Assembly: GCA_003427395.1 (NCBI GenBank)
Contig: BFEA01000031.1
Span: 1,570,138-1,634,137, forward strand
Direction: 5' to 3'
Origin: Chara braunii
Taxonomy: Eukaryota > Plantae > Charophyceae
DNA length: 64,000 nt
Shown: one piece after another, positions 40,781-63,908 of the stretch
How positions within the stretch are numbered: the stretch's first letter is position 1
How the letters are laid out: each line of letters opens with the position of its first letter
The notes under the pieces: generated by a model
What the model saw: only the letters and a program-made list of their open reading frames with translations
Databases searched by the model: none
What the model was told of the DNA's origin: nothing
Translations under genes and position numbers: made by a program

Positions 40781-41577
40781 TATATATATACATAAATAAT
40801 ATTATATATATATGACATTACTGCAGAACTCCTTGTGTGCAGAACCGTCGATGGGAAAACAGGTGTGTACATAATGCAGTGGCAATGGGCTTCACCCCGT
40901 GTACGATTCACCACAGCACCCCATTTCCCTTCTTCTTTTCTGCCTTTTTTCTGGTGTTTAGTATTCTTTAGGTTTCTTTTGTTTTCTTTCGAGAAGTTTT
41001 GACTGTTTTCCTTTTTCTCCCTTTCCCTTTTTCTTTTTCTTTCTTTTTGTGTCTTTCTTGTGTTCGTTTCGGAGGTAGGTAGGAACATAGCTTGGAGTGA
41101 ATAGGTTTGTGGCGGAATGGTGTAGGTGATGGAACAGATACTGGCATCTCTTTTATGGGATGCTGGCCCTGCTGGGTCTGTTTCCCAAGGGGAGGGGGGG
41201 GGGAGGAGATATACTCAGTTTACATTTGTAGGAAGTGTTGGTATTGTTTGATTGTGGGGTAGCATAGACTACTGTAGATTCAATTTGGTGCTCGTAATGT
41301 TAGAATAAACTGTAGAACTGATAGAGCAGAAGATGAGAAGAAGGATTGTAGTCGCTGAAACAGTCATGGCATGAGCTTTGCCTGCCCGGAGAGCCTCTCT
41401 CAGCTCATAGCTGCGGCGACTCTTGTAAGGGGCGCGGGGCCCGCCGGCCTGGTTCCCGGCTTTCATATCAAATAAAGATTGATCCTTTTTTGGGAAAAAA
41501 AAAAGAAACAAAGAAAACGTTGGCGGGCTGCTGCATGCTGTGGGACACCAAGCGTTAAACCCCCTTCCACAGAATAA

Positions 41578-41698
41578 GGGCCTCGCCACACCACTCTCGA
41601 AAAGTGAAAAAGACAAAAATGTGGTGGGTGCATCTGGCCATGTTCTATTACGAAGTTCATTCTCATTCTGCACATTTTGAGAGTGGTGTGGGATGCTC
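41578..41698. mobile_element. Short Harbinger-like MITE
   Basis: Left TIR identical to that at 35035, degenerate right TIR, TAA on both flanks. Confidence 0.65.
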
Positions 41699-42299: not shown

Positions 42300-43860
42300 A
42301 CTGATGCATAAGATGTCCAGTAAGCCATCAGATGTGCAGGGGGGGGTGATCATGGACGACAAGCTCTTATGGGCAGGGATTGAGGGGTGAAGGAGGAGCT
42401 CAGGGGTGGGGATCAAGGGATGGAGGAGGAGCTCGGGGGTGGGGATTGACGGATGGCAGGCTCGCATGATTGAGTTGTGGAGCATCGTCTGTGGGGCCCC
42501 CAGATGTGGGAGGTTGGTTAGAGCGAGTACCTGGAGTCCGTGGCGACAGCGAAGCTGACTGAGATTCCGAGTGCAAGCGGGACAAAGGGGAAGATAGGGG
42601 GACTAGAGAAAGGGCGAACCCTTCTTTGTCCAAGCTCGGCAAGGGAACAAAGAGGGGCGGTGTTGGAGGGCGCGGTGTACCGGCCCTCCACGATGTACCT
42701 AGCACACCTTGCCCACGAGCCTCCGTGGTGTACCAGGCATGTCCAGATTGTGTCCTGCTCCTGGACAGGTCCCCGGCTGACGCTCCCATAACAAAAGGGT
42801 GGAGGTGCGCCACTGGACTTTCCTTTGGTCCATGCGCTCTCAGCGCCCTGCTCTACAGCAGAGCACAACTGGGCGTGCTTGTGGTAGCCGCCACGATCGC
42901 CCGGGGACATGGAGGGGGCAGGTCTGGCGCAGTCTTTTCAGTTGCGCGCCAAGACTCTCAAGTCAAGTTATGGGACAGGTACTCTGACAACTGTCACAAT
43001 AAAAGAAAGGAAAAGAGAAAAATGAAAGAAAAGAAAAAAGAGAAAGTGGAATGCCATTTTGATTTGCGTTTATCTGGAGCGCAGCTTTAGTCTTAATTAA
43101 TCAGAAGGTCACTAATAACTGGCGACCCAATTTCAAATGCTAGGGAGATATCCCGGGCGCCGGGGGCCTGACGTCACGCCCGGCTTGGCAACTGAGTGAC
43201 CGGCCAGGTTTGAACCCAGGGCACGGGCCCGGGCAGCCCCAGCGCAAAAAAATAAAAAAATAATAAAAAACACCTGGAAAAATAAAATGTTGTGTAGAAT
43301 TGCAATACAAACAACTTCTGGCTGAGGGTCACATCAGAATTCCTCACGGAACTAAGGGTAAAAAAGAAAATAACCAAATCACACTAAGACACCCCCCTTT
43401 AAACCCCTTTAGCCTTTTTAAAACTCATTTATACCCCCCTTCCCCCCCTTGACAGCCAACGCTCAAAAGAAGAAAAGAGCCTGGGTTTGGGCTCCTCTCA
43501 GAGAGCGAGGAAAAAAACCACCACCATGTTTTTTTTTGTTTTTTTTCCCCCCCCAATGCCCGGGTATCCCAGGCGTCACGCCTGGGTGACTGGCCGGTCA
43601 TGAAAATCTTCAAATGAGAATTTCTTTCCTTTATTTTAAATTAATTGCTTTCTTTTATTTTAGTTCCCCTCTTGTGATTCTACAGGGGAACGAATGGTTC
43701 CTTCTAAAGTTTTAAAGCGAGCGGCCTAGACTGGCTGACCTCTCACAAATTTGTTCCGCCTAGTGAATGCGACCTACCAGGCGTTGTGGATTAAACTTCC
43801 AAAAGGAGGGTAACCTCGGCCGCATTGGTAGGAAGCTTATCACACCCCATGGAGCACGGG
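42300..43860 (+). mobile_element. Family A internal segment plus the first ~35 bp of the LTR-like unit (left limit approximate)
   Basis: 42800-42980 is homologous to 56020-56200. The junction AAAAGGAGGG...CGGCCGCAT|TGGTAGGAAGCTTATCAC at 43826 matches that at 56879. Confidence 0.6.
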
Positions 43861-46093
43861 TGTGACGCTCAACCTCACGCTCCGCGCTGCTTCCCGGTCG
43901 AAGCGTTTTGGTTTGCGGAAGGGCCTCGGGAGGACAGCGAAGATGGGGTGTGCCAAGGATTTTTGGAAAAGTTGAGTGTGGGGACACAGACGGAACTGAA
44001 ATCCCCCGTGTTGGTCCGACCTTAGTAAGAAGGAGGTCTGCCGCCGCGCGGGTTTAAGGGAGAAAAGGGCGCGCGCGGGACTTGCGGCTATGGGAAATTC
44101 AATCCAAAAAGTATCGCTGAACTTTCCAGCAAGCCGTCGCTCTTCGTTTCGTGTGAAAGGGGGCAGTGCACGCGTGGTATCCTGTTAACGGATGAGGTCT
44201 CATCGACGTTCGATACGCAACTCTGAATCCGATGTGGGGGGCTTCAATCGAGCAGCCCTCTCCTTATGCTCGTCCTCGCCACATGTGCGGCAGTGGAAAC
44301 CCTTGGCTCGGTAACGCTCAAAGCGGCGACAATCGCTGCACATAGTGTTAGGCCAATGAGGCTCCACGGGACGACGATCAACTCATTAAATGACAACAAC
44401 AACGAATAGGGCGGAAAGTGCGTATCAACAATAACAAAACCCGCACCAACGAATCCAAAACACCGATTTTTGGGAGAAAAGTAGTAGCGCCCTCAGATCT
44501 TGGCGACAACTTCTCGTACGTCCCGCTCGCATACACGTATCCTTTCCTCGTTGTACGGGAACGGGCTTGGCGGGGGCACGGGAAGTTGGCGCCCGGTTGG
44601 GTTGAGGCCGTCTGTCCCTATGACAACAAAAGCAAGCACAAAACAAATTTGTCTTAATCATACATCATTCGTTCGACACTCCAGGCAGCCAGATCGTCCA
44701 GTCAATCCGCCAATCATCCTCCCAATCATGCTATAACAAGCTTTCTAATACGACCCAATACATACACATATCAAAATGAGAGAAACAAAGTTACCATAAT
44801 TCATCCATTATAATATAACGTGACAGAATGAGAGAGTGAGGGAGAATAGACGCAGATCAAAGGGGAGGAACGAATATAAGGCAATGTCCGGCGATCTTGT
44901 CTAGGGAAATTCCGACTTAAAAGCCGATTAATCAGAACTCACGTTCGAAGATACAGATTTTGAGAACTTGTCACAAGCACTGACGATCCCGACCGTCACG
45001 TGCTAATCCACCATAGCGATCGTCACCCCGCCAACTTAGTCTACGCACGGTCTGCCCTGGATCCCACAGTTCGTCGGGCAATCCAGCGCTCCACCGCCAA
45101 GGCTACATTCAGCTCGTCGGGACTTTTCGACTCGCACCTTCTCACACACCGTCTAGCCATTGCCTCTCGAAAACTAGCTGATGAGTCGAGAGAGAGATTT
45201 TATGGGGCGCTTTATAGCTGCGGAAAAGGAGATAGACATTAGGAAGGGTTAGGACTGAGGCGGGGAGGGGCAGAGGGAAGTTCGGGGATAATCGTTGAAA
45301 GCCATGTCGATCCTTCGAAGGTCAGTCGTAGCCAATCAGAATCGTCGTGTATCAGGAATTTCCTTCTAACACGGTGCGTCGGCTAGAAGGAAGCAAGAGG
45401 GAGTCGACAAAGTATTTCGGCGCGAGGATTGGAGCGGGAAGAAGAAAAGCGCGAAAGATAGCACGAAACGGAACCGAGATTCAGACGATCAAGAAAGAGA
45501 AAAGGCGTGCGAGGCGAAGGAGAGATCGAAAACGGTTATAGAGAAAGAAGGAGCTTGAGCGCGAAGAAGAGAGTGTTGAAGGTAGCGAGGGAAGAGGGGA
45601 GGGGAGGTTCGCATGCATGACGCCGATGCAAAAAAAAGCACCGAAACAGTTACAACTAGTTCAAAACTGAAAAGTACCATATCTGCGCGTAGGGCGAGTG
45701 TAGGAAAGAGTCCTATACCCATTCAGATTCCTACAAAAAAATTCCGGAGTTTTCAAAGACGAAGTCGAGAACATTCATACACAAGAAAGGACACGTCAGG
45801 TTCCTCTCATTCTAGAATTCCTAACTGTCGACCCAAATTCCTAGCGCGCTTGCTAAGGCGAGCATAATTCCCATGTCTTTCCCGAATTGCGAAAAAATGA
45901 AATTCCAAAAGTCGATCAAAAAAACATTGCCGAAGGTTCAAAGAGGGACGGGCTTCCTTTATTACGAACAATGCACCTTACTTCATGGAAATACAAAAAG
46001 AGGCCCTGTTGGCCTGTTTGCAAGAACACCAAAATTCGAGAAAAAGGGGGGGGGGTTGGAAGATGGCGCATGCCCAGAGGCTGGCGCGTCACA
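43861..46093 (-). mobile_element. Probable 3' LTR (2.2 kb) of a Gypsy element
   Basis: 8-bp terminal inverted repeats TGTGACGC...GCGTCACA, minus-strand TATAAA at 45216-45211, and position downstream of the integrase fragment. Confidence 0.65.
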
Positions 46094-46150
46094 CATGTGA
46101 CGCTCAGGGGGTTCCAAAATTATGTGATCTCTTGATTGCATGCACGAAAG

Positions 46151-48259
46151 CTAGTTTACATGGCAGAGGGGGAAGGAGGAGGTGAGGAGATGAATGAGGA
46201 ACCCAATGTATCGGAACGAACAAAATCTTGTAGAAGCATCAGATCGGGCCGGGGGCCATGTTGACGGCAACTTCAATTGCAATATCTTCACGAATTTGTC
46301 GGCTCCAGGATTTCGGGATCTTCTACCAGCCCTGTCATGTGCAGTTCCCTGCTTCTTTGATCGGCGGTGGTTGTGCCGGATCTTGCCTGGTTCTGCTTCA
46401 TCACTGGGAGTTCGCTCGGCGGTAGTTGACGAGGAGAGGTTTATGGAGTGGTCTAGGCTATTCAGCAGGGAGCGGAGGGAAGTAATCGGATGCTTCGTCA
46501 CCGAGATTGACAAAGTGGACGGTTTGGTGTGCTCGAGGGAATCGATGGTTGGGTCGGGAGAGGGAGAGGAGGTAGTCGGTATACAGGGTAGGGTTAGTGC
46601 GGAGGACATTATCGCGTAGGGACTCATAGTCCTCTACTATGGGAAAGGTTCCAAAGGTGATGCAGTACAACTTCATATGGTTGTACTGTCTCCAGGCAAC
46701 ACTGAAGAGAAGGATGTTGAGGGGGAAGGACAGGGAGTGATGAGGGAAGACTGTGCATAAGAGTCGTACTACAAAGTGGGGACAAAAGAGTTGGTTGGCG
46801 AAAATGCGGTAGTTTAGAGGGAACTCGATGTGGGGAAGAGGAAAAAAGGAGAGAGAATCAAGAGGGCGGCGGTAGATCGGACGAGGATGGAGCGCCCGTG
46901 CGGGGAGGAGGATGGGGACAAAGCACGGAGGGGGTGGAGGAGGGAGATGGGGAGCAGGAGCGGGGGTGCCGACGGGAGGATTTTGCGCCATCGTGTCGAC
47001 TGGCAGCGTCGGCAGGGACTTCGGGGTTCAGAGCAGATCCTCCCCGTGTAGCAGGTAAAGCTCGGGCCGGCGGGCCCCCCTGGGGCTCCGGTGCTGATGC
47101 CTCTTCTTCTTCTTTCGACGTTGATCTGGCTTCGGACTCTTCTTCTGTCGATAGACCTCCGATGGCTATGCGACCTGGATCGTCGTCCGATGACACCTCG
47201 CCATGTGTCTGGTGAGCGTTCCGGAATTCATTTAGATCGGAATTATCCAGTGCAAGATCGTCCAGGTCCAGGAAGCACCAAGCCGTGGGATCGTGATCGC
47301 TCAAATATTGACAGAAGTCGTTTGTGCAGTTCGCCCAAATTACTATTGGTGTCAACGTCCTTTCCAAAGTGACAGGTTCGGCCTGGTTGGGATCGCTCGG
47401 ATTGAAGGAGAATGTTTGTCGATAGATCGTCCACGAGCTGAGACAGAAACGTGAGAATCTCGTACGCAACAGTCGCTCTTCCGCCTTCAGCGATCTCCCC
47501 ACAAAGAAGTCTAAATAAAGTGCCACGAGTCTCCGTCTTCGTCGGCCACGCCTGAGCTAGCAGTAGCGAAATCTTGTTGTAGATCTCTAACTCCCGATTG
47601 CTATAGTACCGAGCCCAGTGACACCTCATTCTTAGCATGCACACACTGATCGATGCAAATTCAGTCCACTTGCGGAGGTAAAGAGGATGGAAGGGAGGGA
47701 TCCTGGAGGGGCGAATCTCCAAGGTTAGAAGGGGATCAGCCCAAGATGGTCAGAGAGTTGGAAGATCTGAGGAGAGGGAGAAGGTCGAGAAATGATTCAT
47801 CGGCGCAAAGGGTAGGTACGAAGAGGGGGAAGGGGATGAGCTGGGGGATCAGTGCTACTAGTTCGAAGAGAGAAGGTATCGATACACTCGGTTCCCACTA
47901 TTTGTCGGCCTGGTCGGGCTAGTCGCCGCTGTCTACTCGTAGAGGCTGGTGATCACTGCGTTGCGTTGCTGCAAGTGGACAGTGCATAGATCACCACTGA
48001 AGGCAAGGATCTCCGTTACATCGCTCTGGTTAGGCCGAGAGAATCGATCGAACGCCGAAACTTCCACTAGGATGGTTGTTGCTCCCCGCTCCGTTGAAAT
48101 CATCATTTCTACCGCCGCGCACCAAGCCCGGTGGCTAAACAGCTGAGCAAACCGGAGGAGATCGGGACTGAGACTAGGATGCGGGACTTGGCGAAACTGC
48201 AACAAAGGTCGAGGCTGAAGAAGTTGTGGGGGAAGGGCCGGATCGATGGCGAAACTCAT
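46151..48259 (-). pseudogene. Fragmented extra ORF between integrase and the 3' LTR
   Basis: Chain of same-strand ORF pieces (48259-47933, 47722-47243, 47526-46858, 46627-46151) with protein-like composition. No family recognised. Confidence 0.45.
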
Positions 48260-48319
48260 GGCGAAGACTGAGGAGAAGTGGTACCAGACGAAGGGGGGGA
48301 AACAAGATCCTCGTCTAGG

Positions 48320-48634
48320 CTAAAGAAAGTAGACGAAGGCGAGGTAGGAGGTATGGCGGACGATAGGAATAGAGCTATGGCTGGCACCGGTCTCAGGAGC
48401 GATGTGCGCAGTATTGGCTCCGTTAGGGTCGAGTTCCACTACTTGAAAACAACCAGAAAACTTGGGAGCGAGTTTCCGGTCGCGTGCACATTTACGTACC
48501 GGCACTAGGTCCCCTAATTTATACTGGTGCTGTGGGCCTACATTCCCATTCCAGGCCTCGTAACTATGGACCTGCCTACCGTGGGCCAGTTCGGTAATTT
48601 CCTGCCTTTTTCGGGCTAACCGCCTTATCCACAT
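48320..48634 (-). pseudogene. pol: Ty3/Gypsy integrase C-terminal (GPY/F module) fragment
   Basis: QYKLGDLVPVRKCARDRKLAPKFSGCFQVVE fits the F/YxxGDxV...KLxPK(W/F)xGP(Y/F)xV motif. It is cut off at 48635. Confidence 0.8.
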
Positions 48635-49236
48635 TGGTAGGAAGCTTATCACCCCCCATGGAGGGTCATAAACCCCCTCCTTACCATCGGACACAGACCC
48701 CTATTAGTAGTAGTCAAATCGTCCCCTTTCAAAGGAGGGAGGTCATCAGTTGGAGCTCCATTATGGGATCACATTGCGCGCCGAGCCTGATGTCTCTTCA
48801 AGTCTAGTTGAAAAGACAGCAGGGGTAGATCATAGGGGTGCACCTATGTAGTGACCATTGAAATTTTATTTCGGGCTGCGTTACTTAGCTAACTAGTGGC
48901 TAACAATTTCTTTCATTTTATTATACTTTTATCTTAATTTTCATATTATTCTTACCTTATTGAATTGAAAACATCAAAGCCTCTTAATTAAAACGCAGGG
49001 GCAGCGACACCTTCAAATTTTATAAGAAGGTGGCCGCTCATATATTCACCTATTGGTCGAAGGGTATGCACGTGGGCTTATGCTGCCAGTGCCTGCCACC
49101 ACATTGTTTTGTACATCAAGATAGCAGTGTTGAGGTGCGAGGTGCTTAGTCCACGACTGTCTGAGTTTAGTAGTCCAGTAGCTTATGCGCGTGGTGAGTC
49201 TGAAGTGAAGAGTTAGGCACTGACTATTCTATAGTC

Positions 49237-49726
49237 ATGGCTTATTGTGGTGGTCTCCACTACTACAGGACTAGACACTTTAAGTGTTTTTGGAGCTGGG
49301 AACCTAAGGGCGAAGAGGGAGTTGTAGTGGACGCTAGCTTGAACTACAGTAAGTATGGCAGGCTAGTGAAATTGAGAATTAATGTTTATGGTGACAAGGA
49401 ACATGAGATGAGGGAGGATGTAGCTGTGCAAGGGGCAGTTACCGAGGCTCGAAAACCGGGCTGAGTGGAGGTGCAAACGTGACGGTTTGACCACTGCGCT
49501 CCAGACTACCATTACCTACCATGAAAAGGAGACCTCTACTAGGATTACCGAACGAGAACAACAACGGCTGGATCGAGACTCAAAGGCGAAGTCCGAAGCC
49601 AATGATGCGGAAACCCAGTCTTGGCATGGATGGGATCAATGGCAGAGAGACCACCCGCCAACCGAGTCGTGGAGGATGGTCCAGAGGCTAGTTCACGGCC
49701 ACAAAAATGACATTGAGAGTGCATAA
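49237..49726 (+). pseudogene. Family A ORF-A, frameshifted
   Basis: KLRINVYGDKEHEMRED...QGAVTEAR / TALQTTITYHEKETS aligns with 57480-57947. Confidence 0.7.
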
Positions 49727-52585
49727 GAAAATTAGGCAGAGGTAGACCACGTGTGGGTGCATGACATTCAGTACGAGTGAAGCGCGAAAGCGGAGTGGAG
49801 TAGCATGCCATGCTTTACATCATCTATACATCTGGCACGATAGATATGATTCTTTTGAGCACACTTCAATCGCATTTGTGGTGTGTATATATAGTATGTG
49901 CAACATATGAGCGAAGGAGTTATACCAATTGAGGGTTGGTCTACGCGGGAGCTTCACGTATGAGGCTGCTGTTAACGTCAACAATATTGCCCCTACATTA
50001 CCCCCAGTCATCGAAACTCAGCTTTAACGAGCAAAGGGTGAGGTGAACTCACGAGAGAGGAAAAGGGTGGGAATGCATAGAGAGCTTGAGAGAGGTAAGA
50101 CTTCGAGTGAACACACTATGTGTGAGAGGTTGTGGTTGACAACGTAGGCTTGTGCTCCCTGCTGGCTCCAATCGTATTCACAGAGTTTCGCACTGCGCAT
50201 CTTTCACCATCGTCAGAAAGACAAGTGTCATGTTGTCTTCATCATCTTCGATGTGTAGGTGTAGGAGGCAGGGTGAGAGAGGGAAAAAAGTCAGGGCCTC
50301 GGAGGACCATAGTCATGCGGGGGAGAGTTGATAATACCAATGTCGGTACGAATGCACCAGGATCAAAGAGGCTTCTTCGTCGTCAGCCGTTTGTTTGTTG
50401 GGTGTGCCATAGAGGACACTTGTTTGGTCGCGTTTTGATCATTTCTTACTAGAACCGCCATAGCGGGTGGTTGTTTTGCAATATTGCACTTTCTGATGGT
50501 TTCATCATCTACATCACATTCTACGCCATTTTCTCCATCGCCACTGAAGTGCTGCTTTAGTTATCACAAGTGAGCTTCAAATTGCCACCATCATTTACAA
50601 GCTTCATGCTAAGTTGGCCGCAGTCTGAGCGTGGATGAAAGCAACTCCGAGAGGGTACTCTCGCTAATGGGAGAAGGTTTTTAACTTTTGGGAAAACGTG
50701 GTTGACACATGGGTAAAAACAGTTGTCGTCACTGAGCATGATCTGGTTTTCCTGCACTAATCTCTGAAGCCACTATCAAGTGTGATTTGGCTATCTTTGC
50801 GTTGACCTTTGATACCGTCATCGGAAGTGAGTTGAACGTCTTCACGCTAGTCTTCGAAGTTGCCTCTTCTATGTTAGTTCTTGAGGCTATTGCGAAGGGA
50901 GACTCTGCTTCTCCTTATGAAGGCCGCTTTTCACTTTACAAACATAAGCAAGTTCATTAGTGAACCAGTTACAAATACTCATACAAATTAGCACATCGAG
51001 TATGACAAATTATGTATATACTTTTTAACATGCCATGATTTGTGAATGTGTCATGCACGCCTTGACAACTGTGACACACATCCTTACGTTTTTCTGATAT
51101 TGCAACCACGAGCTTTTTCAAATCTTCACGTATGCTTGTAACTTTTATTTATACCGACGTTGACCAGTAACCAGGACGGGTTTTATGCGTATCTCAAGTT
51201 CCCCTCTAATACTGCAGAAATATCTCATTGCACCTTAGTAAATTGTAAGCAAACCCTTGATATTTTATGATATGACAGACATGTCCCCCTGCTTAATGAC
51301 AAATTGCAAAGTTACCCCTGGTGGTCCAAGAAATTTCAGGCATAACTCTAGATTTTCTTGAAACGAATTTCAATAATATTTCTACATTCGGAACCATGAA
51401 GTTAAATGTGGACAATTCCTCGCATTTTAATAACGAGTCTAAGTGTGAGCGAAACTTAGGTTCATAACTTCTGTTGAGTGCAAACAAACTCTAAAGACCA
51501 TGTCATTTCACTAAATGAGAATGATACAAATAGACATAAATCTTAAAATTCTTCCATTGAGTGCGAGCAGACACCCTGTTTCAAAGTTGCTAAGAGTGCT
51601 AACAGTCCTCATACCGAGAAACTTCACAATTTAGACCTAGTACTCTAAACCTCCGCACTCTTGGACAAATGGAATTCATAGTGCGCTTTAATTGCTCTAG
51701 TGCTTTGAATTATGACACCATACATCAGCTCAAACAAGTTTCGTATGACAACTAAAATCTAGTGGAACTTAGTTCACTAAGCGAACTCTTCATAAGCGAC
51801 AGTGAAGACAACTTTCAGTAGGTTGTGCAGTCAAACATCTTGATCGATGTCCAATAACACTCCACTACCTATTCAGACAACTCTTTGGCATACTGTTTTT
51901 TAACAACCCATCCTAAGAGGGCATGATTGATAATATCAGCAGTTTTCACAAAAAAAGTCAACTCTATTTTTCTTTACAACATTTTGCATTTGTTATAGCA
52001 ACACTCAACAGTTCATCTGAGTTGAGTTTGGTTGTCTACTAAAATTTATCAACAGCAGCTTTATTATTATTATAATTATAATAATAATAATAATAATAAT
52101 AATTATTATTATTAATCTTAATTGTATTTATTATCAATTCGGATCATTGCATAGTAGTTATTTAGGTTGGTCCCCTCCAGGGCTAAGAAACGACCTATAG
52201 CAGGTTGTTAAGGCAACTTTTGACAAACTTTGTTTCGCAAGCTACCTAAACAGCATCAGCAGTGTGCTAATCAGTACATAAGAGTTAGTTGTTATCACCC
52301 AATGAGGTTTTAACGGTCTGTTTAGGCGGTACTCAAGGGATTTAAGCCAGTCTTTAACAAACGATCCAATAGATGGTCCTCAACAGATTGTTTGAGATTA
52401 TCTCAACGGTAACAAAATTGAAGCTTAGCAAATTCCTAGTTACTGTTCAGATCAATCTACAGTGCACTGTCAATCTTATTCTCATGTTGTAAACGAATTG
52501 AGGAAACCTATCAAGTCGCAAGTTGTCCCCTCTCCTTCTTCTTGCATCTTGTCAAGCTCCAAACTCTTTGAGTGGGCAGAGGATC

Positions 52586-52831
52586 ATGAGGGACGGTGAG
52601 GTCTTAGTTGTGAAATGCAAGATCATCAAGGACAAATATGAAGGTTGGAAAATGAAGACTGATCAAGATATGGAGTTTCATAAATTGGTCTTGAGAGAGC
52701 GTGCAGTTCGGAGGATTGGGGAGAAACAATGTATTGAGTATGTTTTTTTATTTCTACGATCATACCGACAATCTACACAATACTGGATTCTTTTTTAGAC
52801 CATTGAGCAAGCCAGGGCGAGGCTTAGGTGA
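52586..52831 (+). pseudogene. Family A ORF-B, frameshifted
   Basis: MRDGEVLVV...DQDMEFHKLVLRERAV...CIEYVF, then TIEQARARL after a frameshift. Confidence 0.65.
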
Positions 52832-53112
52832 AAAAAACTAATTTTTCTCAAAGACATCATCAAGATTTATCAGTAAATCAATCAACAAATGTTTTCTATC
52901 ATTTTATAACTTTTCTCAGCACCAAGCGGTCAATGACTTGCAATCTGTGGCCAATTGCTCGGCAACTTCCAATCATCAGAGATATCATCAGTAACTACCA
53001 ATCATAGTTGATTAATTCAGTTTTCTTTAGTCAGTGTCACTAAGTCGACACTTGTCTTGATCTCATTCAAATCATAATTCCTCAACATGCCAATTTCCAA
53101 CAATTTTTATGC

Positions 53113-53757
53113 ATGAATACTATCACATCTTTCCCAGTTCATCAAACTGTCCTGACCAGTCTCAACAAGATAGCTTCCAAGGATGCTTTCCAATATCGGT
53201 ATGTGAGTGCAGTTGACTTCATACAATGAGATTTGTTAATCTTCGTGGTCGTCACTGAGTTTGCAGAGGGAACTATCCAAGATCTGAGGATCTATGTGAA
53301 GAAACTGAAGGAGACTCATGAATATTTCGATACAGTATAAGTTACAGTGAGTCAATAGAGGAGAGAGCACGAGTGCTTCAAGGGGATGCAAAGTTGATTT
53401 ATAGCTTTGGTCATAAGTTATACACTGACTACCCTAAGCCTCTGGTCCCTTTTTACCTCATTGATGGTTCTTACTAAGGTGATCTGGTTGATTTGGCCAA
53501 GAGGTACGTCTCACCAGCAGAGTTTGACTATGAGGCAGTGACTGAACCATCAGAGTTTTGACATCTCAGGCGAGAGGTCTTCTCTAGGCCCTATCGTCCT
53601 ATTCTGCAGGATTAGTTATGTAATATGTTTGACTTTCAAATCTTTGGGCTTGGATTGTCATATTCGAAATTCATGGACTTTAGGTGACTCTGTATCACTA
53701 GACTACAATCTGAGGGGGTACCTAAACCGTGCTAAATGTGGCTCAAGACGCTCGAGA
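53113..53757 (+). pseudogene. Family A ORF-C, multiple stops
   Basis: MNTITSFPVHQTVLTSLNKIASKDAFQYRYVSAVDFIQ*DL... is collinear with 4818-5456. Confidence 0.8.
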
Positions 53758-55729
53758 CGAACAACCAAGAGTGAAATTAAGGTGAATTGAAAAAAAAATT
53801 AACAATGTAGTTGAGGATTACGTCTCACAGCATACTACATCGTTCAACATAGTTTCACCATACCTGGTATGGATTCCACCATACTACAAACGTTCTACTT
53901 GAATACTGCTCAGTCTGCTGGAGAGCGCACACTCTCTCTTTCTATTTATCCCCCAGTAGCAGTCTCATCGTCCTCTCGGAACGAAAAAAGAACTGGTACC
54001 AATTCCGAAAAAAATAATAATATTAATAATTGCAACAAAAGCACAATAGTTCGAAGAAAGTTCAAAAAGACTAAAAAAAGCAAAAGAAAGTTACGGAAAG
54101 CATTGATAAGGGATGTATGAGGACTCTCGACGAGTATTGGCCATGTATTTTCATCTGTATTTCTTGGGATTATGACGAGTTATCACCATCCCTCATTCAT
54201 TTTGTCTTTGGCTTGAGTCAATCAGTCCTGATTCGTTTCATTGAAATTAATCAAGTCGGGGACCAACGTAGATCATAATTGAAGGGTCTCACTCGAAGCC
54301 GGATGCACACAATAAGAAGGGATTTGCATTATTCATTATTTATTTATTGCAAAAATCATAAAAAAACATGTGTAACAGCCTGTTTTCTTTCCGATCGTCA
54401 TAAGTGGTCTGCCCATAGAAAAAATGCGACAACAAGTTTATAAGGGAGTGTAGGGCAGCAAAGTGGACACCCCCCCAGATGAAGGGAAGGACAACGATGA
54501 AAACGAACATGGCGGTGACTCCGGTGAGTAGGAAAAATGCGAAGTTTTCGTATGATTTGAGGCATCAACAACAAAGGAAGTCAAACCATCAGTTGACAAA
54601 GAAGAGGTAGGGAGTGCATTACTAGGGAATGCAAGAGAAAATAAAGAGCATAGGACCAAAGGAGTTGGTGGTTGCAGAGAATGAGGAGGCAGTGTGACAT
54701 GAGTAAAAAGATCCCAGTGGGTAAAAAGTGACGGGTGCAAAGGTGTTAGAGGCAGGAGAGATGAGGCAGGTAGGAGGGAAAAAACTAACGAAAGTAGTAG
54801 AAGCGAGGTAGGCAGGAGCACAGGGGGTAAAGAAAACAGGGAATGTGAATGGGATTCAGGAGGGAGGCACGAAGTCTGGGGTTGTGTGAGCAGTGTAACA
54901 CATTAATCAAACCAAAATCAGATAACGCCAGTTAGGAAGTTTAAGTATTTTCGCGCGGACAATTACAATTGTTTAGAGACTAAAACAAAATACCCAATAA
55001 TTGACTTGATATCTTATGATCATATGATTTTTTAATATCTTCGCCTGGACTATTACACATGTTGAAGCACTGAGAAAAAACCCACTAATTCACGCGAAAT
55101 CTTGTGTTCATATGATATTTTAGAAAGAAGATAATTGAAGAAGTATGTTATGTACAAATTCTATTTTGGATATTTTATTCCTATACACTCCTAAAAAAAT
55201 CAGCGGTCCTCGCATAATGCCCCCGCCGGGCCCACAAAAAATCGTTGCACATGAAACCGTCCGGGTGCGGCCGCATTGTCGACGTGCACAAGTTTTTTCG
55301 GCGTCATGGGACCGTTTGATTTTGTCGCCTCTTTGTGGGGGTTCGGTGTGTTTCGTTTGGTTGTTCTCCTTTCTTTTTTTTGTGCAGTGTGGCGGGTGGA
55401 CGCGATGCAAATGTTCAAATACAAGTTCATAACATAAGCCGTTCGGGTGAGCATACACATGGTACATGGCCTTGCTCCATCCCTAGCGGTGTATCTTTCC
55501 ATGGTCTAGGGGAAAATTCATTCTCATGTTTCTTTAATATTGTTTCCTGTCCTGTTTTTCCTTTTTTTTTCATAAAAAATAAAGCACAAATGACAAAGAT
55601 ATGGCGGTGTATCTTTCAATGTTCTACCAAAAGATTCATTCCCATTTTGCACGTGCTGTTGCATGATCATGAAAGGCAAGGGGGACTTGACGAATCACAA
55701 TCGTCAAAGAGAGGATGTGACGTGTGATG

Positions 55730-56878
55730 CAGTGGTGGCGGGAAGAGGAGGGTAGAAACCAGGAAAAGCGCCAGGAGGAGGAGCGGGAGGAAGGGGGGGA
55801 CAGAAATCAGGAGCGCGAAGAGCGGGAGGGGGACCAGGGGCAGTTATGAGGAGCGCGGTGTCGGAGGGGCGGTGTCCCGGCCCGCCTTTGTGTACCAGGT
55901 CCTCGCTCAGTGCCACTTGTCCCGGCTTACTGCTCCCTAGGCTCATCTCGTGCCGTAGGTCTGGTACCTGGATTGTTCTTGGTGTGGACTGGTCCTGTCG
56001 GTGCATGTCCTTAGCAAAAAGAGTGCGCCACAGGGCTTTCCATTGGTCCACGCAGGCTCGGCGCCCTGCTGTACTGCAGAGCACAACCGGCCTGTGGCCG
56101 TGATAGCCGCCGGGTTCGCCCTAGGACGCGGAGGTGAGAAGACTAACTCAATATTTTCGACTGCGTACCAAGCGCCCCTCTGCAGAGTTATGGGTTAGGT
56201 GCACGAAAGACAGGTAGTTGTTAGGAAGGAAAGAAAACGGAGTAAAGGATGAGCACGAAAATGAAATTAAAAAGAGAAAAGAGAATGGAACGCCTGATCG
56301 GTACACGGATCAAGGTCGTTGCCTTAGTCTGGAGTAATCCGGCAATAGCTGTCCGCCTACTATTATTACTGTTATTATTAATTTGCCTATTTTCGGAGGC
56401 AAGTTCACTTTCGGCCCTCGTCACCTCGTAGGGAGGCCAACTATTTGGGTTTCGAGTTCAGGTGGTGGTATTGCGGCCTAGGCAAGCCTGACCCTTCGAA
56501 TATCACCTGTACTAGGCCCGTGCATCTAAGCCTCGCGCGGTAGGACCTAGCTATATTGGAGACCAGGTATAGTGGGATCTGCATGGACTTGTACTGCTAT
56601 TCAGGCGGAGTTGTTGCACGGAGAAAAATTGAATCGCCACCCTTTTCTTCTTATTGTTATTATTTTTATTATCATTATTATTATTATTATTACTCTACCG
56701 GTTTTGGACGCGGCTTCCCTTTTCGTTTTCTGTCACTTCGCGGGAAAATCAACAGCCCTAATCTTGGGCTGTGGTCCACGGCCTACGTTGGCCGACCCCA
56801 AGTATCTCGTCTCAGATCGAGCTCCGATTGAGCGCCGTGCGATGATGCCTCAAAAGAGAGGGCGACCCGCGGCCGCAT
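55730..56878 (+). mobile_element. Family A internal segment preceding copy 3 (left limit approximate)
   Basis: Homology to 42300-43825. Purine tract AAAAGAGAGGG at 56852-56862. Confidence 0.55.
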
Positions 56879-57479
56879 TGGTAGGAGGCCTATCACCCCC
56901 CCATGGAGGGTCATAAGCCCCCTCCTTACCATCAGACACGGGTACCCAATGAGGTTAGGTCTGTGCTGCATTTTAAGAAGGTAGGGTGTGGTCTCCTGTA
57001 TCTCGTTATGGGACTGCAGTGCCGAATCGCCTGTCTTATCGCGAGGATCTGAGACTGACAAGCGCAAGGCAGGTTCATGATCGACCGTTGGGTTTCAGGC
57101 TCGAGTATTATTTTCTGAAAATTATTTAGCTCTAGTTTATCGCCTCATTTTATTTATTGCTTTATTTTAGAACTTTTTCTTTTTTTTCTTGAATCTGGTA
57201 AGACCTGAAAAGGACTAGTCGAAATACCTCATTCAAAACGTAGGGAGGCAAGCTTATAAAAGGAAGAGGGAGTCAGAATGTCGTCCGCGGCCAGCAGCCT
57301 GGTCGCACGTAGTCTGTACCGCAGGCTCCGGTGGAGAGAGGCGTGCTATTGGGAGTTGGTGACTTTGTGCTGCACTATTTACCGAATAGACGCTGGTTAT
57401 TGAGAAAGAGCGGCTATGGTGTTGCACGGCTATAGACCTGGTTACTGGTATCACCTATCACCAGGCCCGGTGGAAACCC

Positions 57480-57947
57480 ATGTTTGGGGAAGGGCCCTGG
57501 ATCACTGTCATGCTCAGTTACGATGGGGGTGATGAAGTGAGGATGAAGATTAACGTGGAAGGGGCTAAAGAGGTGGAGATGAGGACTGATGGAAAACTGC
57601 AGGATGCGATCACGGAGGCAAAAGACCGTGCGGAGAGGCGCTGCAGGAGGGACGGGGTGACTGCAAGGCTGCAGGTAACGGTCTCGTATCATGAGACCAA
57701 GACCTCAATGGGCACAGCGGACCTGGAACAGGCCCACGTGGACAGGGACTCAGGTGGGGAAAGTGAAATGAGCGAAGCGGGAGACCGGGAAACGGACCTC
57801 AGATCCTGGAATAGACCAAGCGAGATCCAGAGGCACCACCGAGTTGTGAAGCCGGTGGAAGAGGGACCCGAGGCCAGCTCTCGACAGCTGACACCCAGAG
57901 GCCGTGGGACAGAAGAAAAGCAGAACAGGGGGAAAAGGCGCGTGTGA
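57480..57947 (+). CDS. Family A ORF-A (155 aa), unknown function
   Basis: Open ORF homologous to 49237-49726. The true start may lie upstream in another frame. Confidence 0.6.
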   Translation: MFGEGPWITVMLSYDGGDEVRMKINVEGAKEVEMRTDGKLQDAITEAKDRAERRCRRDGVTARLQVTVSYHETKTSMGTADLEQAHVDRDSGGESEMSEAGDRETDLRSWNRPSEIQRHHRVVKPVEEGPEASSRQLTPRGRGTEEKQNRGKRRV

Positions 57948-59316
57948 TGCGAGTTCAATATAGCGGAGAGGCTGAGGCGAGGACGGGGGGCTCGCGGTAC
58001 ACACGACATGTGTCGTGCGAGAGAGAGAGAGAGGGAGAGAGAAGGTCAATGCGTGAAAAGGGAAGAGAGGTGGTTGGCGTCAACACATCAGGCTATGCAC
58101 AAGAATGAGGAGTGAGCTTACCGCGTTTCGCTAGGGAGGTAGCCTTGGATCGAACAGGGCATAAAACTGTGGCCTGAGTACTCAGCCAACGCGTGGCACG
58201 CTCGTGTGGGAGGGAAGAAGTATGGGCAAGGTGCACGAGTGATTAGGGAGCGAGAGAAGAGGAAGCGCTCTCGAAATGCATGACGAGCAGGCAAACTACG
58301 GGTCTTCGGGCTATGACGAAGAGGCTAGTGAGTCGTCAAGCGAAGTTTGGGCTCTTATCTCCAAGAATCCGGTTGCGAGTTTCTGACTGAAGCCTGAGCA
58401 GTTTTTCGCGCACTGTTTGCTTCCTCCTGACTCTCTCGCGTTGCCAAGAGTATGTGAGAGAACTACGGTTGATGTGCCTTGGCTGTTTAACTGGCGAGAA
58501 TAACATTGGTCACATGCCACGTTGGGTATGGAAACAACAAAGTCTAATGTGGTGATTCACTCGAGTACCGACAAGAGCATTATTCGTGCAGCCGCGCAGA
58601 GAAAAGATGTGAGGAAGGGTTTGCGTGTATGCTCTAGTTTTGTCAAGTAGACAAAGGCCATTACTACTGCTTCTTTGATGAGTAAACCGTTGGAGAAACC
58701 AACGTGCGCGCTTCATACGGCGTATGCGGGCCCAACGTCAGAAAGGGGGTTATGAATTGAGCTAGATCTGCGAGGAAGAGGGCCTCGCTTACCCGTTGGC
58801 AGGCACTGATGACTACCACACCGTCATCCTCATGTGATCTTCAGCCTGAGAAGGGGGTGGCAACCAAGAGTCATCCGTGTGTTTTCTCTATAACTGTCTC
58901 GGCCAAGACTTCAGATAAGATGTTGACTCTTGCGGGACACAATTTCCTTTCAGCTTTCACTAATTTTAGTCTCCCTCGTAATTCAGGTAATCAGTGCAAC
59001 TGATCATTATAACAACGATTCAAACATACCTGTGACTGAAGTGATTCAACGTAAGGGAGGTAGGTTCGAGACGTTAGTGAGTTTGAGATTGAGTATTTCT
59101 GTTTTTTTTTGCATGACCAGGTGCTGTCGGGTTTGGTGTGTCGTTTATACTGAGTGGGATAAGTGACCTCTTGGCAAGATTAAAGAGAAGTGTTGCCTCT
59201 GTAATCAAGAGCTTAAGCGCCGCAAAGTGGAGTTTACAAATACATAAAGGACTCAGACCCTTTTTCCGTCCCCTTTCATCTGCGTGTGACAGCACAGTGT
59301 TGATTGTATTGAGTGG

Positions 59317-59537
59317 CATTGCTGCGTGATTACACTGTGTGACTACGCAGTGCGATCGCATAGTGTGACCGCACTACGCGGCTGTACTGTGTAACTACAT
59401 TGCTGCATGATTACACTGAATGACTAAGCCATGCGATCACGTAGTGTGACTACACTACGGGGCTATACTGTGAAATTACATTGCTGCGTAATTGCACTGT
59501 ACGACTCTGCCATGCGATCACATAGTATGACTGCAAT
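59317..59537. repeat. 81-bp tandem repeat, about 2.7 units
   Basis: CATTGCTGC unit starts at 59317, 59398 and 59479. Confidence 0.9.
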
Positions 59538-60953
59538 GTGTTGCTATTGCATGAGTGTATGGCAGTCAGGGTTTATACGTGTGCGTTTAATCGTGTACCT
59601 AATTGTGACTGTGTGAGTTTGCTAGTGATCAGAAAACAACTGAGCAAGTGAACATTTCACTAAGCTATTTCAATGGTCAACTGCAAGCTACCGTGAAGAA
59701 AAGTTGAAGATATCGAAATTATAGCCACCATGATCTTTTAGAGAATCAAAATGCAGACTGAGTAGCAAAGCTTAAAAGGAGGGACTGGTCTGTTTACACT
59801 GGTTTGTCATGCCCAGCCGAACCTTCGGTGAGTGGTAGAGTTCGTATTTAGAGAAAGTTCTCGCATGGGCAGGAGGCAACGCACGCTAAAGAGGATTATA
59901 TATATCCTTGTAAAGTATTTAATTGATGGGGACTAGCGAGGGTTAACTCAGCTTACTTGTGAGTAAGACCAACGAATAGTGGTCGAACCATCAGTATTGA
60001 GCATAATCTGAGCGGAGTCACTTAATAATTTGAACGCGACCATTTATCAGCAATTCCGTTGTGATGATCGGGCAGGTTAAGTTGTTGAGTTGGGTTCCCG
60101 ACTTGACTTAATCTGAACTTTTGTCATATCACCTCTGGAAACTTGAGAGGACAACCAAGCACGAACGTTCCTGGATCTAACCAGTCTCCCATTCACTGAC
60201 AAGTTACGTGCAAACTTATTGAAATAGCATGAGCATTGCCTATGAAGCGTTTTTATTTCATTCGTTGTGCCGGCTGATGCAGAAGAGGGGCCACAATGTT
60301 TAATGTTGCGTACGGATAGAAGTCACAATTGCCTTGCTCACCACTAAGTTAGTTGTAGTGCGGTTATACTGCTGTTGAGTCTGGCTCCACGCTGGGACTA
60401 AACTCGACTACCCAACGCTCAATTCGATTGGTCGTTGTGCCTCACCACACCTCGTTCAACTTAAACGTAATTCAGATCTGCACAGGAAAGAATGTGAGAA
60501 GCGTCTCATGCCATGCTGGTGAGAGACAAGATCACTGATTAAGCGATTCAGAATCCTCATGGAGCAGCAACTCATTTAGAGAGAGGAACGAAGTTAACTA
60601 CTTGATTTCCACAGTGACTGTCATTTTCTGAACTAGACCTGGAAGGTAGATTGATAGTTTAGAGCTACTGATCGAATTATCGATGAATACTCCTCCACCT
60701 TGTCAAACTTACTAGGCCTCTAAGTGTCAGAACCCAGCGAGACAGAGAATCATCTACCACCCCCCCATTTTTTTTTTTTTGACAGCAAGTTGCAACAAGG
60801 GAACTGAGTGAGCAAATGTTCCACGTTTAGCTCCTTCTTACGATGCTCTGGTCAGGGAACGAACTCGAGGTTTTCATCTGTTAATTGCTATCTCTGGCTT
60901 GGACTATTGGTTCCTGTGACCGGTGAGCCGGTGCGATAAACGTCAGCGGGAAA

Positions 60954-61205
60954 ATGGGGGATAGTGACACAGTGAGAGTAACTTGCTCGTTGCGCCAAAG
61001 CTTTGCAGGGGACTGGAGAGAGAATGCAGTGGAAAATTATAATCAACTGACAGTTATAATGATGGAACACGCACTGACCCTTGTGAGGAAACACACAAAA
61101 ATCGAGTACACGTACTACTTGCATGACGTTAATGGGAGGTTGTGTGCCACCATCTCATCTGTGGGCTCCGTTGAGAGGGCTAAAAGAGTTTGTGGCAACC
61201 AGTGA
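60954..61205 (+). CDS. Family A ORF-B paralogue 1 (83 aa)
   Basis: MGDSDTVRVTC...EHALTLVRKHTKIEYTYYLHDVNGRL...SVERA. Confidence 0.65.
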   Translation: MGDSDTVRVTCSLRQSFAGDWRENAVENYNQLTVIMMEHALTLVRKHTKIEYTYYLHDVNGRLCATISSVGSVERAKRVCGNQ

Positions 61206-61434
61206 GGTGAATAGGCCCACTATTTCTTGGGTAAATGAGCTTACCTCAAGGGGAACAAGGGAAGACCAGAAAAACAACACTCATTAAGCATGCAGCAGAT
61301 CAGAACTTGAATAACTGCAAATCTTTATAGCACAAGGACGACTAGTTGAATAGCAGTTAAGTGACAGAGTCAGACAGTTAGCAAACTTCACCAGTTTTCT
61401 CACCACTGTGAACCAATGCAGACGCAGTTGAGAC

Positions 61435-61689
61435 GTGGGTGATCTAGACACAGTGAGGATCTCTTGCGTTCTGCATCAAGGCCGCGCCAAAGAAGAATGG
61501 GAGAGGGAGAGAGTTATTGAGAATACCCACCGCAAGACGACTCTCACGAGAGAGTACGCCCTGGCGGTAATAGAAAATCAGACTAAGATCGAGTACTTTT
61601 ATCATTTCTACGGGGTTGATGAGAGACAACAAGCTATCTTCTCCATAATTGATTCAGTTGAAGAGGCCAGTAAAGCTAGTGGCCTTTAG
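61435..61689 (+). CDS. Family A ORF-B paralogue 2 (84 aa, GTG at the start position)
   Basis: GDLDTVRISC...EYALAVIENQTKIEYFYHFYGVDER...SVEEA. Confidence 0.6.
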   Translation: MGDLDTVRISCVLHQGRAKEEWERERVIENTHRKTTLTREYALAVIENQTKIEYFYHFYGVDERQQAIFSIIDSVEEASKASGL

Positions 61690-61892
61690 TGGAAGAGAAC
61701 TCAATATTCAATTCAGCATTCAGTCCAATATTCAGTTCAACTTTCAAATCAGCACCCAAATCAACACTCAGTTCAGTTCAGCGACTAAATCAGTAAATAG
61801 ATCAGCAATTCAGCAAGCAGTCCAACAATCAGTTCAGCATTTAAGTCAGCAAGTGAATCAGAGATAATCAACAGATATCAGACATCTTTGTC

Positions 61893-62549
61893 ATGAGTAC
61901 AGTGCAATCTGCTCCAGTCAGTGAGACAGTGCTGACTAATTTCAATCGGATCTCATGCAAGGAGGCTTTCCGTTATCAGTACGTCAATGTCATTGGTTTT
62001 GGACAAGGAGATCTGTCAATCTTCGTTGTCCGGACCAGTTTCGTTGATGGCACTATCCACGATCTGAGGCCTTACCTGAAGAAGGGCAAGGAGGCTCATG
62101 AGTATTTCGATCTAGTCTGAATCTCAGCCACCAAATACCTCGAGCAGAGAGAGAGGGAGCTCGATGAGAGTGGCACTACGCTGATCCGCAGCTTTGGGCC
62201 AAAGCTTTATACTGACTATCACAGACCTCCTGTTCCTTCCCTTCTCACTGATGGCATAGGATGGCATGACATGATCAGCTTGGCAAAGAGATATATCTCT
62301 CCAGCGGTGATCGACATTGAGGCACTGACAGAGCCAACCGAGTATCCATACCTCAGGCGAGTAGTCTTCTCCGTGGACGGGCTGCCTACTTTGTGGGAGG
62401 AGTTTTGCTCCATGGTTGACTTCCGTGTCATATACCTCGGATGGTAATGCTCATAGCTTGCTGGTTTCAGGTGGCTCTTTGTCACGAGGTCTCAATCTCA
62501 GATTGTACGTGGGTGTGGGTCACAACACCAGGGATGGTCAATGAAATGA
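61893..62549 (+). pseudogene. Family A ORF-C with premature stops
   Basis: MSTVQSAPVSETVLTNFNRISCKEAFRYQYV... A Trp-to-TGA change at 62118-62120 interrupts it, and homology continues in frame (SFGPKLYTDY, LAKRYISP). Confidence 0.8.
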
Positions 62550-63908
62550 GAGATTGAGAGAGACTGACCAGAGGGATGAGTGAAGACTCTTGAGAGGTGC
62601 TGACCATGCTTGCTTATATGTACTTTCTGAGATTGTTACGAGTTCTCATTCTTCCCTCAATCATCTTGTCTTTGTCTTGAGTCAGTCGGTCTTGATCTCC
62701 TTCTTGACATTGCTTGAAGGTTATGTTCTCGTTTGCTGATTATGTCACAGTTCTCAAAATTCCTAAATTGGCATCTCGATATACACATGGCATATTTAAT
62801 TTAATTTTCATTATCTGCATCATCATTGTTGTTCCGAATCACAATTAAAGATTCCTAAAATCGGGGTCCGGCGAAGACCGCAATTGAAGGGTCTCGCTCG
62901 AAGCCGGGCGCACACAACAGGAAGGGATTTGCTTTATTTAATTTATATTATTTATTGCAATCGCAACCAAAATCTTGCGTGACAGCCTGTTGGCTTTCCA
63001 GGTCGCCCGAAGTGGCTTGACTGGAAAAATGTGCGACAGCGGGGAGCGGGAGGGGGAGTAGGGGCAGGATGAGGAGTGGGAAGAGGAGCGTAGGAAGGAA
63101 GAGCGGGAGATTGGTGACAGGAGGAGAAGGGGAAAAATAACAATCTAGGAGGAGGACAATAAACTGAAAGGAGCACCAGGAGGCGAAGCAAAAGGATGAG
63201 TGGAAGGAGAAGGACACTGAACTCGCGGAAGAGCGCCAGGAAGCAGCGCTAGCGGAGGAGGGCATGAGAGGAACGAGACATGGAGGAGATGCCCGCAAGA
63301 GGAGGAGTCGATGAGCTGATGGAGGAGGACAGTGGAGGAGTGGGAGGAGGGGCAGGATAACTAATGGAACGAGGAGCGGTAGGGGGGAGGAAAGGAAGGA
63401 TGACGAAGAGGAGGACGGCAAGCGGAAAGATTGCACGAGTACCAGGATAAGTGAAAAGAGGAGGGGGAAGATAACGAGCGAAAGGAGGAGCAAGAGGAGT
63501 GGCAGGAGGCGGAATGTGATGAGGGAGGGAAGGACGACGTGCAAGAGGAGGCATGGGAGTAGTAGTAGTAGTAGTAGGAGGAACGGGTGCAAGAGGAGGG
63601 GGAGCGGGATGAGTAGGAGAAGGAACGGGAGAAAAAGGGGCAAGATGACGAGTTGGAGGAGTACAGTGACCGAGAGGACGAGGCGGACGGGGAGGACGAT
63701 GAGTGGCAGGAGAAGGTCAACTAAGGGGAGGAGGATATTTTTGTGTGGTTTCCTTTCTGCGCATTGCATCTTCGGATACAAGTACACAACAGCATGCGGT
63801 TTTGTCGCGGACTGCAAGGAGACCCGTGGCTGAACAATAGGAGGCTGACGGCCTCGAGGGCGAGGGTGAAGAACAGGAGGACGAAGAGTTTGATATATGT
63901 ATATTTAG

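Follow-up and report, generated by a model that had tools for sequence, protein, structure and literature searches.

Long terminal repeat (LTR) retrotransposons share, in the scheme of REXdb, paired LTRs, a primer-binding site (PBS), a polypurine tract and target-site duplications (TSDs) (PMC6317226). Among them, Retand elements are described as carrying between pol and the 3′ LTR a region of 2.9 to 6.6 kb with open reading frames (ORFs) and tandem arrays; in that description they are known only from eudicots and monocots, and their ORFs are antisense and mostly encode TRP28 (PMC11963269). Here, we describe a dispersed three-gene repeat in a 64,000-nucleotide stretch of the Chara braunii genome (contig BFEA01000031.1, positions 1,570,138 to 1,634,137 of the forward strand; hereafter, the window), which is eukaryotic DNA, rich in microsatellites and interrupted by gaps. 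The repeat is a real feature and belongs to an abundant, diverse family. We tentatively favor the reading that its copies represent the 3′ portion of an abundant LTR retrotransposon, in which an ordinary 3′ LTR of ~460 bp would follow a long internal region that carries accessory genes. This is simpler than taking the whole ~6 kb as one LTR, which we consider less likely.

The window holds one partial copy (U0, 2489 to 5965) and two complete copies (U1, 48635 to 54431; U2, 56879 to 63038), all on the plus strand. The boundaries of the complete copies are those of an earlier reading of the DNA letters (the sequence-only reading), and the left boundary of U2 is doubtful. The units exist as proposed there, but homology between copies covers just about one-third of each (1,871 of 5,797 bp in U1 and 2,296 of 6,160 bp in U2). 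Their ~3-kb middles are unrelated, except for a 28-codon match between U2 (59874 to 59957) and U0 (2489 to 2572; 57%, E = 5e−7), here called motif D, which is possibly the remnant of a fourth ORF. What is conserved is a collinear series of islands (a flank F, a left island, a TATA-like word, ORF-A, motif D, ORF-B, and ORF-C) with unrelated spacers between them. The order A-B-C on one strand, also part of the sequence-only reading, holds in both complete copies, with the amendments that ORF-B is present twice in U2 and that U0 has ORF-B and ORF-C only; neither ORF-A nor a left island was found in positions 1 to 2488. Between the left island and ORF-A lies a weakly alignable promoter region with a candidate TATA box, located 386 bp (TATAAGA, 49021 to 49027 in U1) and 376 bp (TATAAAA, 57255 to 57261 in U2) inside the left TG, in agreement with the ~380 bp claimed earlier. 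The middle of U2 contains a tandem array (81 bp × 2.7, 59317 to 59535, strand not assigned). It also contains a cysteine-rich stretch with a stop (59124 to 59240, plus strand; …CCRVWC…KCCLCNQ…), which may be a decayed zinc-finger ORF.

The three ORFs differ in their state of preservation among copies. ORF-A is interrupted by one frameshift in both U1 (49237 to 49726; near 49451) and U2 (57416 to 57947, ~175 codons; near 57455). ORF-B is open in U0 (4260 to 4505, 81 amino acids) and in U2 (60954 to 61205, 83 amino acids), and frameshifted in U1 (52586 to 52831); the second ORF-B of U2 (61432 to 61689) is diverged and has 38% amino acid identity to the first. ORF-C is open in U0 (4818 to 5456, 212 amino acids), has five to six stops and frameshifts in U1 (53113 to 53781), and has three stops in the aligned part in U2 (61893 to 62510). 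ORF-B is unrelated to either ORF-A or ORF-C. Start codons are aligned for all three ORFs. The plus-strand frame was recovered in all seven pairwise comparisons (three of ORF-C, one of ORF-A, and three of ORF-B), with proportions of synonymous differences of 0.64 to 0.84, which are near saturation, and of nonsynonymous differences of 0.22 to 0.38. Third codon positions differ most in six of the seven comparisons, with one tie. Judging by these substitution patterns, ORF-A, ORF-B, and ORF-C diverged under purifying selection and are real genes. Because this signal of selection coexists with open ORF-B and ORF-C in U0 and with stops or frameshifts in U1 and U2, the copies probably diverged under selection on their genes and then decayed after insertion.

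To evaluate abundance, we used contigs of two DNA runs from one study, possibly the source of the window itself, at 80% likeness and relative to single-copy bins. Expressed as summed word depth in 650-bp bins, which is not copy number and undercounts diverged ORFs at this cutoff, the values are 2,700 to 3,000× for the right end of U2, 800 to 940× for ORF-C, 240 to 270× for ORF-A, 500 to 770× for each left island, ~500× for the copy of F next to U2, and 7 to 8× for the middle of U2. In the same data, a gypsy-type remnant nested in the window has an LTR-to-internal ratio of ~5:1, and we count the greater depth of the right end of U2 relative to its ORFs in favor of a short LTR there. Two RNA runs, X5 and X6 (6% and 12% read), gave almost nothing on the ORFs in X5, and in X6 a signal that is equal on both strands, mostly <90% alike, and tracks DNA depth, which looks like DNA carry-over.

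A HMMER search of ORF-C against 1.84 billion representative proteins returned four matches, of which two are Chara braunii gene models; the others are an ENA protein without a name and a repeat protein. The closest relatives are the gene models CBR_g30998 and CBR_g4049. They have either ORF-A followed by ORF-C on one strand (72% and 82% amino acid identity to U2) or an ORF-C that begins with its ATG; in CBR_g30998 an open ORF-A, 72% identical to that of U2, precedes ORF-C, which confirms the A-then-C order at another locus. Both models continue into a gypsy reverse transcriptase (RT), and we read them as stitched predictions because one has a scrambled domain order and the two RTs are identical at only 54 of 115 positions. 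The loci are other copies of the family, which automatic annotation appears to have fused to unrelated gypsy RT or protease pieces and named for the RT. The unnamed ENA protein (P0007/P0009, on contigs of 586 and 513 bp) has 26% identity to ORF-C (E = 7e−9), which suggests that the ORF-C gene family reaches beyond this genome. The fourth match (P0008) was dropped, as it consists of 20 residues in a repeat protein.

Other searches yielded no relatives. Pfam, PHROGs, a phage tblastn search, and PDB sequences gave nothing for ORF-A, ORF-B, or ORF-C; where PDB sequences did match, it was to the RT portions of the gene models. A word-indexed protein search gave none among 137 near-length and 614 longer candidates for ORF-C (this search missed both HMMER-found relatives), and an ORF-B profile gave none among 38. 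The AlphaFold model of ORF-B from U0 is good (β-α-β-β-α, pLDDT 83); its best fold matches have E values of 0.03 to 0.08 and a best VIA Z of 5.0 (rmsd 2.9, 76 residues aligned), and its weak fold rows include many PD-(D/E)XK nucleases, at scores too low to be trusted. For ORF-C, whose model is poor (pLDDT 45), Foldseek gave no match at an E value of 0.001. In the fold atlas, P0007 gave weak rows of the endonuclease/exonuclease/phosphatase fold (TM 0.52 to 0.59, under the bar), and there was nothing usable for ORF-A. DNA patterns of the repeat had no match in metagenome and viral contigs and four in prokaryote genomes, compared with ~9 expected by chance, none of which extends at the protein level. 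One locus (L001) was rejected as a relative, its 34-residue match being a chance one in a prokaryote-like operon that we take to be a gas-vesicle operon. For the virus-like element that the sequence-only reading offered as an alternative, there was no support, as viral contigs, phage genomes, PHROGs, and viral folds gave no match. Its statement that no RT, integrase, or recombinase of this family is visible was borne out: Pfam on 103 stop-free frames revealed no RT, recombinase, or HUH protein for the repeat. A literature search, with subscription journals, the original Chara genome paper, supplements, and Repbase/Dfam outside it, found no description of the family.

The clearest boundary is the right end. 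All three copies in the window end in TGCGACA (at 5965, 54431, and 63038). Because identity between copies drops from 72 to 81% over the final 60 bp to 34 to 43% over the 60 bp beyond, which is the random level (300 random pairs: mean, 41; 95th percentile, 48; maximum, 58), the right end is sharp in three of three copies. The three right flanks are unrelated (z of −0.4 to 0.1 and −1.0 versus local shuffles). The sequence-only reading was right on both counts. The CA ends also resemble other LTR ends in the window, namely …CGTCACA at 46093 and …CGTTACA before a primer site at 21221 on the minus strand.

Inward from this end lies a noncoding right block that, in all three copies, starts with a purine run of 6 to 7 nt abutting a TG (at 5502, 54114, and 62577). 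The block of U2 (62577 to 63038, plus strand, 462 bp, TG…CA) directly follows AGAGGGA and is a candidate for an ordinary 3′ LTR. That of U0 (5502 to 5965, plus strand, 464 bp) also follows AGAGGGA and is 76% identical to it, and that of U1 (54114 to 54431, plus strand, 318 bp) follows AAGGGA and has an internal deletion of ~145 bp. The junction AGGGA|TG is thus present in all three copies, and the 15 nt before it contain 10 to 11 purines versus 4 to 7 before the left TG. In comparisons with U1, identity steps up at the purine tract and TG from 35 to 53% to 70 to 77%, and the BLAST match between U1 and U2 starts at this tract. We regard these observations as modest, weak evidence that the purine tract and TG may mark the start of an LTR. 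The block also contains AATAAA or AATTAA ~195 bp before the right end in all three copies. A 31-nt stretch of a Pedobacter genome (L002:7993-8023) matches the U0 block at 30 of 31 positions; it is of low complexity, has no wider similarity, and is taken as chance.

The left end is less well defined. The sequence TGGTAGGA occurs three times in the window, at 43826, 48635, and 56879, and it had been taken as a sharp end shared in the same way as the right one. To the left of the TG at 43826 and 56879 lies the flank F, as F43 (42570 to 43825, plus strand, with a small inverted-repeat insert near 43197 to 43590) and F56 (55767 to 56878, plus strand). Their homology, noticed earlier, was confirmed (42746 to 43102 versus 55971 to 56339; 65%, E = 5e−28), and differences in the F56 core (56023 to 56172) are even across codon positions, so it is noncoding. 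F runs collinearly into the unit in two of the three copies without a sharp step, and identity between 43826 and 56879 rises gradually across the TG (41, 43, 50, 58, 67, and 84%). Because these two copies share F and change gradually across the TG, U1 is the sole independent left junction (one of three copies), and the claim of sharp ends stands on the right side only. A 12-nt direct repeat, GCGGCCGCATTG, at 55267 to 55278 and 56869 to 56880 (plus strand) flanks a 1.6-kb segment with F56 and could reflect a target duplication or be due to chance; F43 has no such repeat upstream that we could find. F56 (55820 to 55845) and the right flank of U2 (63044 to 63069) have in common a purine-rich plus-strand motif of 22 of 24 nt, in surroundings that are not significantly similar (z = 1.9).

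The left island itself is well conserved. That of U2 (56873 to 57022, plus strand) is 92% identical over its first 60 bp to that of U1 (48629 to 48777, plus strand). The copy at 43826 is a stub (left island 43820 to 43860, plus strand; 35 bp inside the TG), 33 of 35 nt of which are identical to U1, and is cut at 43861 by a gypsy-like LTR. Between the stub and U1 lies a gypsy-type remnant that is unrelated to the repeat (43861 to 48628, minus strand). It consists of a 2.2-kb LTR-like repeat (43861 to 46093, TGTGACG…CGTCACA) and then a minus-strand gypsy 3′ region, whose integrase C-terminus (48320 to 48628; MLVIN_C, E = 0.004, below the curated cutoff) adjoins U1. The homology of U1 to other copies begins 6 nt before the TG (48629 to 48634; CCACAT versus CCGCAT), and 0.4% of the 6-mers in the window match as well. 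At U1, no TSD was found; at U2, a 4-bp match appears only after a 6-nt end shift among 110 shifts tried, and neither copy is a whole element or a clean solo. The possibility that U1 is a clean insertion into the integrase is ruled out, as the sequence to its right is low-copy and holds no integrase. In the nested remnant, an LTR-like end and a second LTR-like start stand back to back at 46087 to 46107 (CGTCACA, 2 nt, TGTGACGCTCA), which resembles a two-LTR junction.

We propose that the internal region of the element spans at least 7 kb and would comprise F, the left island, an internal promoter, the accessory ORFs, and tandem arrays, followed by the ~460-bp LTR. The element would spread via reverse transcription and integrase, with the 6- to 7-nt purine run priming the plus strand and integrase attaching at the terminal CA. 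Its gag-pol would lie further upstream and would have been lost from these copies or be supplied in trans. The left TATA would be the internal promoter of the accessory genes, which, to guess by analogy, may aid replication of the element or counter host silencing. In the simplest history of the U1 junction, a gypsy element would have landed ~40 bp inside the left island of a copy linked to F; part of it would then have been deleted, and the break repaired from a family copy at the 6-nt microhomology.

Several observations weigh against this reading. The right-block purine tract was noticed post hoc, its run is short, and purine runs of at least 5 nt before a TG occur 3.3 to 3.7 times per kb. 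Identity between U0 and U2 shows no step at the tract (55 to 80% upstream). A canonical TATA is lacking in the right block, which has a conserved TATTTA tract ~95 bp before its end instead, while a good TATA stands at the left; the ends of the block are inverted in TG/CA only. A search of the window for a 5′ partner of the block returned only the three known copies, and none of the three right ends is followed by TGG as the start of a PBS, although all three may be 3′ LTRs. No gag-pol was found upstream of F43 or F56, and the two Chara gene models, which look stitched, place their RT exons downstream of ORF-C rather than upstream. The sense orientation of the ORFs and the stated limits of the depth measure belong on the same side. 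By the usual marks of LTR elements, CA is present at all three right ends and TG at both candidate starts; a purine tract abuts the TG of the ~460-bp block in three of three copies, with the short, common run just mentioned, and does not abut that of the ~6-kb unit; and paired direct repeats are absent from the 64 kb, the copies being 72 to 81% alike at their end with unrelated middles. As pairs, PBS, and TSD are unseen in the window, we do not file the repeat as a member of the LTR retrotransposons.

The rival that survives best, though we consider it unlikely, is the one that the sequence-only reading placed first: the whole ~6 kb is one LTR, with U3 starting at TGGTAGG, a promoter at +380, genes inside the repeat, and U5 ending in CA, while F is the 3′ end of the internal region. 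Its TG…CA ends, the terminal islands as the most conserved parts (92% and 72 to 81%), and the canonical TATA ~380 bp inside the left end agree with this, as do the left bins, which are jointly deep (555 + 753× single copy), and the downstream RT exons in the two gene models. A purine tract of 10 to 11 nt is present upstream in both F-linked copies (43801 to 43810 in F43 and 56852 to 56862 in F56). Such a tract normally abuts the 3′ LTR, and these end 15 and 16 nt before the left TG; the position given earlier was correct. The unit length of 5.8 to 6.2 kb falls within the 1.9 to 6.5 kb reported for Ogre LTRs (PMC6431247). The premise that LTRs are normally noncoding has a described exception in mouse mammary tumor virus (MMTV), whose sag/naf gene lies in U3 (PMC9412291). 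Against the 6-kb LTR also stand the left end that is independent in one of three copies only, and there has the microhomology of 0.4% chance, the missing TSD at U1 and shifted 4-bp match at U2, the lack of a pair or PBS in the window, and the conserved AGGGA|TG, which it leaves unexplained. Because the left boundary comes from one rearranged junction and the purine tract is not adjacent to the TG, the 6-kb LTR is unsupported over the simpler reading, and what stands of the earlier proposal is a plausible link to LTR retrotransposons, in keeping with the sharp CA end and the selected genes. If the 6-kb LTR were true, the rule of noncoding giant plant LTRs would be overturned: each full element would carry two cassettes, each with three or four fast-evolving genes that have no known relatives, solo LTRs would be free-standing, self-contained expression units, and a TATA-driven cassette would have spread through a charophyte genome in thousands of copies.

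An unclassified nonautonomous DNA element, moved by an HUH protein or a tyrosine recombinase, is improbable. It would have its own promoter, cassette, and poly(A) signal and would insert behind CCRCAT without a TSD, with F as carried-along flank. CCRCAT does precede all three left ends, no TSD was found, AATAAA or AATTAA stands near every right end, and imperfect hairpins occur near both ends. However, only one of 12 end folds is unusual (z = −3.1 for the minus strand of the left island, seen in U2 alone, with a minimum of −2.6 among 60 background folds), and consensus folds of the terminal hairpins on two to three rows show little covariation. There are no terminal direct, inverted, or split repeats and no HUH or recombinase ORF, and the right flanks continue neither F nor each other, so F is not a simple target. 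Helitrons have 5′-TC…CTRR-3′ ends and an AT target, and the ends here are TG…GACA or TG…ACCA. Replitrons, most families of which are described as lacking TSDs, are abundant in nonseed plants (PMC10288648); with regard to their short direct terminal repeats and HUH Rep, the units share no repeat beyond CA at the ends used here, the true left end being uncertain, and have no HUH ORF. Ginger/GingerRoot transposons are described with 100- to 150-bp terminal inverted repeats and TSDs (PMC6839031), and here there is no inverted match between the ends. For DIRS, Ngaro, PAT, and VIPER elements, which are described with split direct repeats or inverted terminal repeats plus an internal complementary region (PMC6681497), the terminal 70-mers have no internal copy above shuffles.

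The two remaining readings fit worst. A 5′-truncated retroposon (LINE or Penelope-like) or an endogenized virus is very unlikely: the sharp 3′ end, the variable 5′ extent with microhomology, and the right end as the deepest part in reads are in line with a retroposon, and Chlamys Penelope-like elements are reported as abundant in C. braunii (PMC8557442), but there is no poly(A) or repeat tail, no hammerhead ribozyme in Rfam (four weak matches in 42000 to 64000, none at the gathering score), none of the partial-tandem pseudo-LTRs or RT/GIY-YIG of Penelope-like elements, no RT or endonuclease, and no viral match. Least probable of all is that TGGTAGGA is a PBS, F a 5′ LTR, and the unit the internal region of a nonautonomous LTR element, since F is not repeated behind any right end and the flank of U1 is integrase-coding rather than LTR, even though the junction CATTGGTA shares 8 identical nt with what we take to be a U5|PBS junction at 21219 to 21226 on the minus strand. 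The window contains no tRNA with which the proposed PBS could be compared.

Other features of the window lie apart from the repeat. The 5′ part of another gypsy-type element occupies 15671 to 21230 on the minus strand, with an LTR end and primer site at 21212 to 21230; positions 15887 to 16240 weakly match a Ty3 capsid (E = 0.06). What looks like a host gene is a 1,359-codon open frame at 25991 to 30070 (plus strand), which has a U-box (E = 5e−18), a weak MCAfunc match, and long tracts rich in E, P/S, and G. A very abundant short dispersed repeat (55486 to 55652, near 273 to 316, 22876 to 22980, 23592 to 23708, 31395 to 31460, and 41575 to 41688) dominates loose ends in DNA and RNA reads. To the right of U0, a ~370-bp two-copy repeat (8260 to 8947) has a further match at the start of the window (1 to 152), and U0 may be nested in another element.

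On either LTR reading, the repeat represents an abundant, apparently undescribed family in the algal lineage neighboring land plants. Its several accessory genes, kept by selection, have no Pfam, PHROG, or PDB relative, and for each of the three ORFs an open copy is available. In the Chara gene annotation, the ORFs are already present as contaminants, fused into "RT-domain" models.

Among described systems, MMTV resembles the repeat in having an ORF with its own promoter inside U3 (PMC9412291), and foamy viruses in having accessory genes between env and the 3′ LTR under an internal promoter (PMC7828637). Both are vertebrate retroviruses with no sequence or fold relation found here, and MMTV sag/naf is one ORF, not an ordered cassette. 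Large retrotransposon derivatives (LARDs) are likewise large LTR-type elements without gag-pol that are moved in trans, as far as they are described (PMC6431247). Unlike them, the repeat shows no paired LTRs and consists of selected coding sequence. The pairing of U1 with U2 as one LARD is ruled out by the lack of a PBS, the low-copy spacer, and the unrelated middles. Ogre elements have LTRs whose size range includes the 6-kb unit and extra ORFs of unknown function; in the descriptions at hand, these ORFs are internal, the long LTRs are noncoding, and pairs, PBS, and TSDs are known, which are unseen here (PMC6431247, PMC6317226). The closest likeness is to the Retand/Tat group of Ty3-gypsy elements, which includes Grande. 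The accessory gene of Grande in maize is said to have its own promoter. Unlike the ORFs described for Retand, those of the repeat would be sense (as counted above), three or four in number, small, without a Pfam match or a linked RT, and in another host group. As described, the Retand/Tat elements hold additional ORFs and tandem arrays in a multi-kb stretch ahead of the 3′ LTR, and some members are nonautonomous (PMC11963269). By this analogy, the repeat would work most like their pol-to-3′-LTR region.

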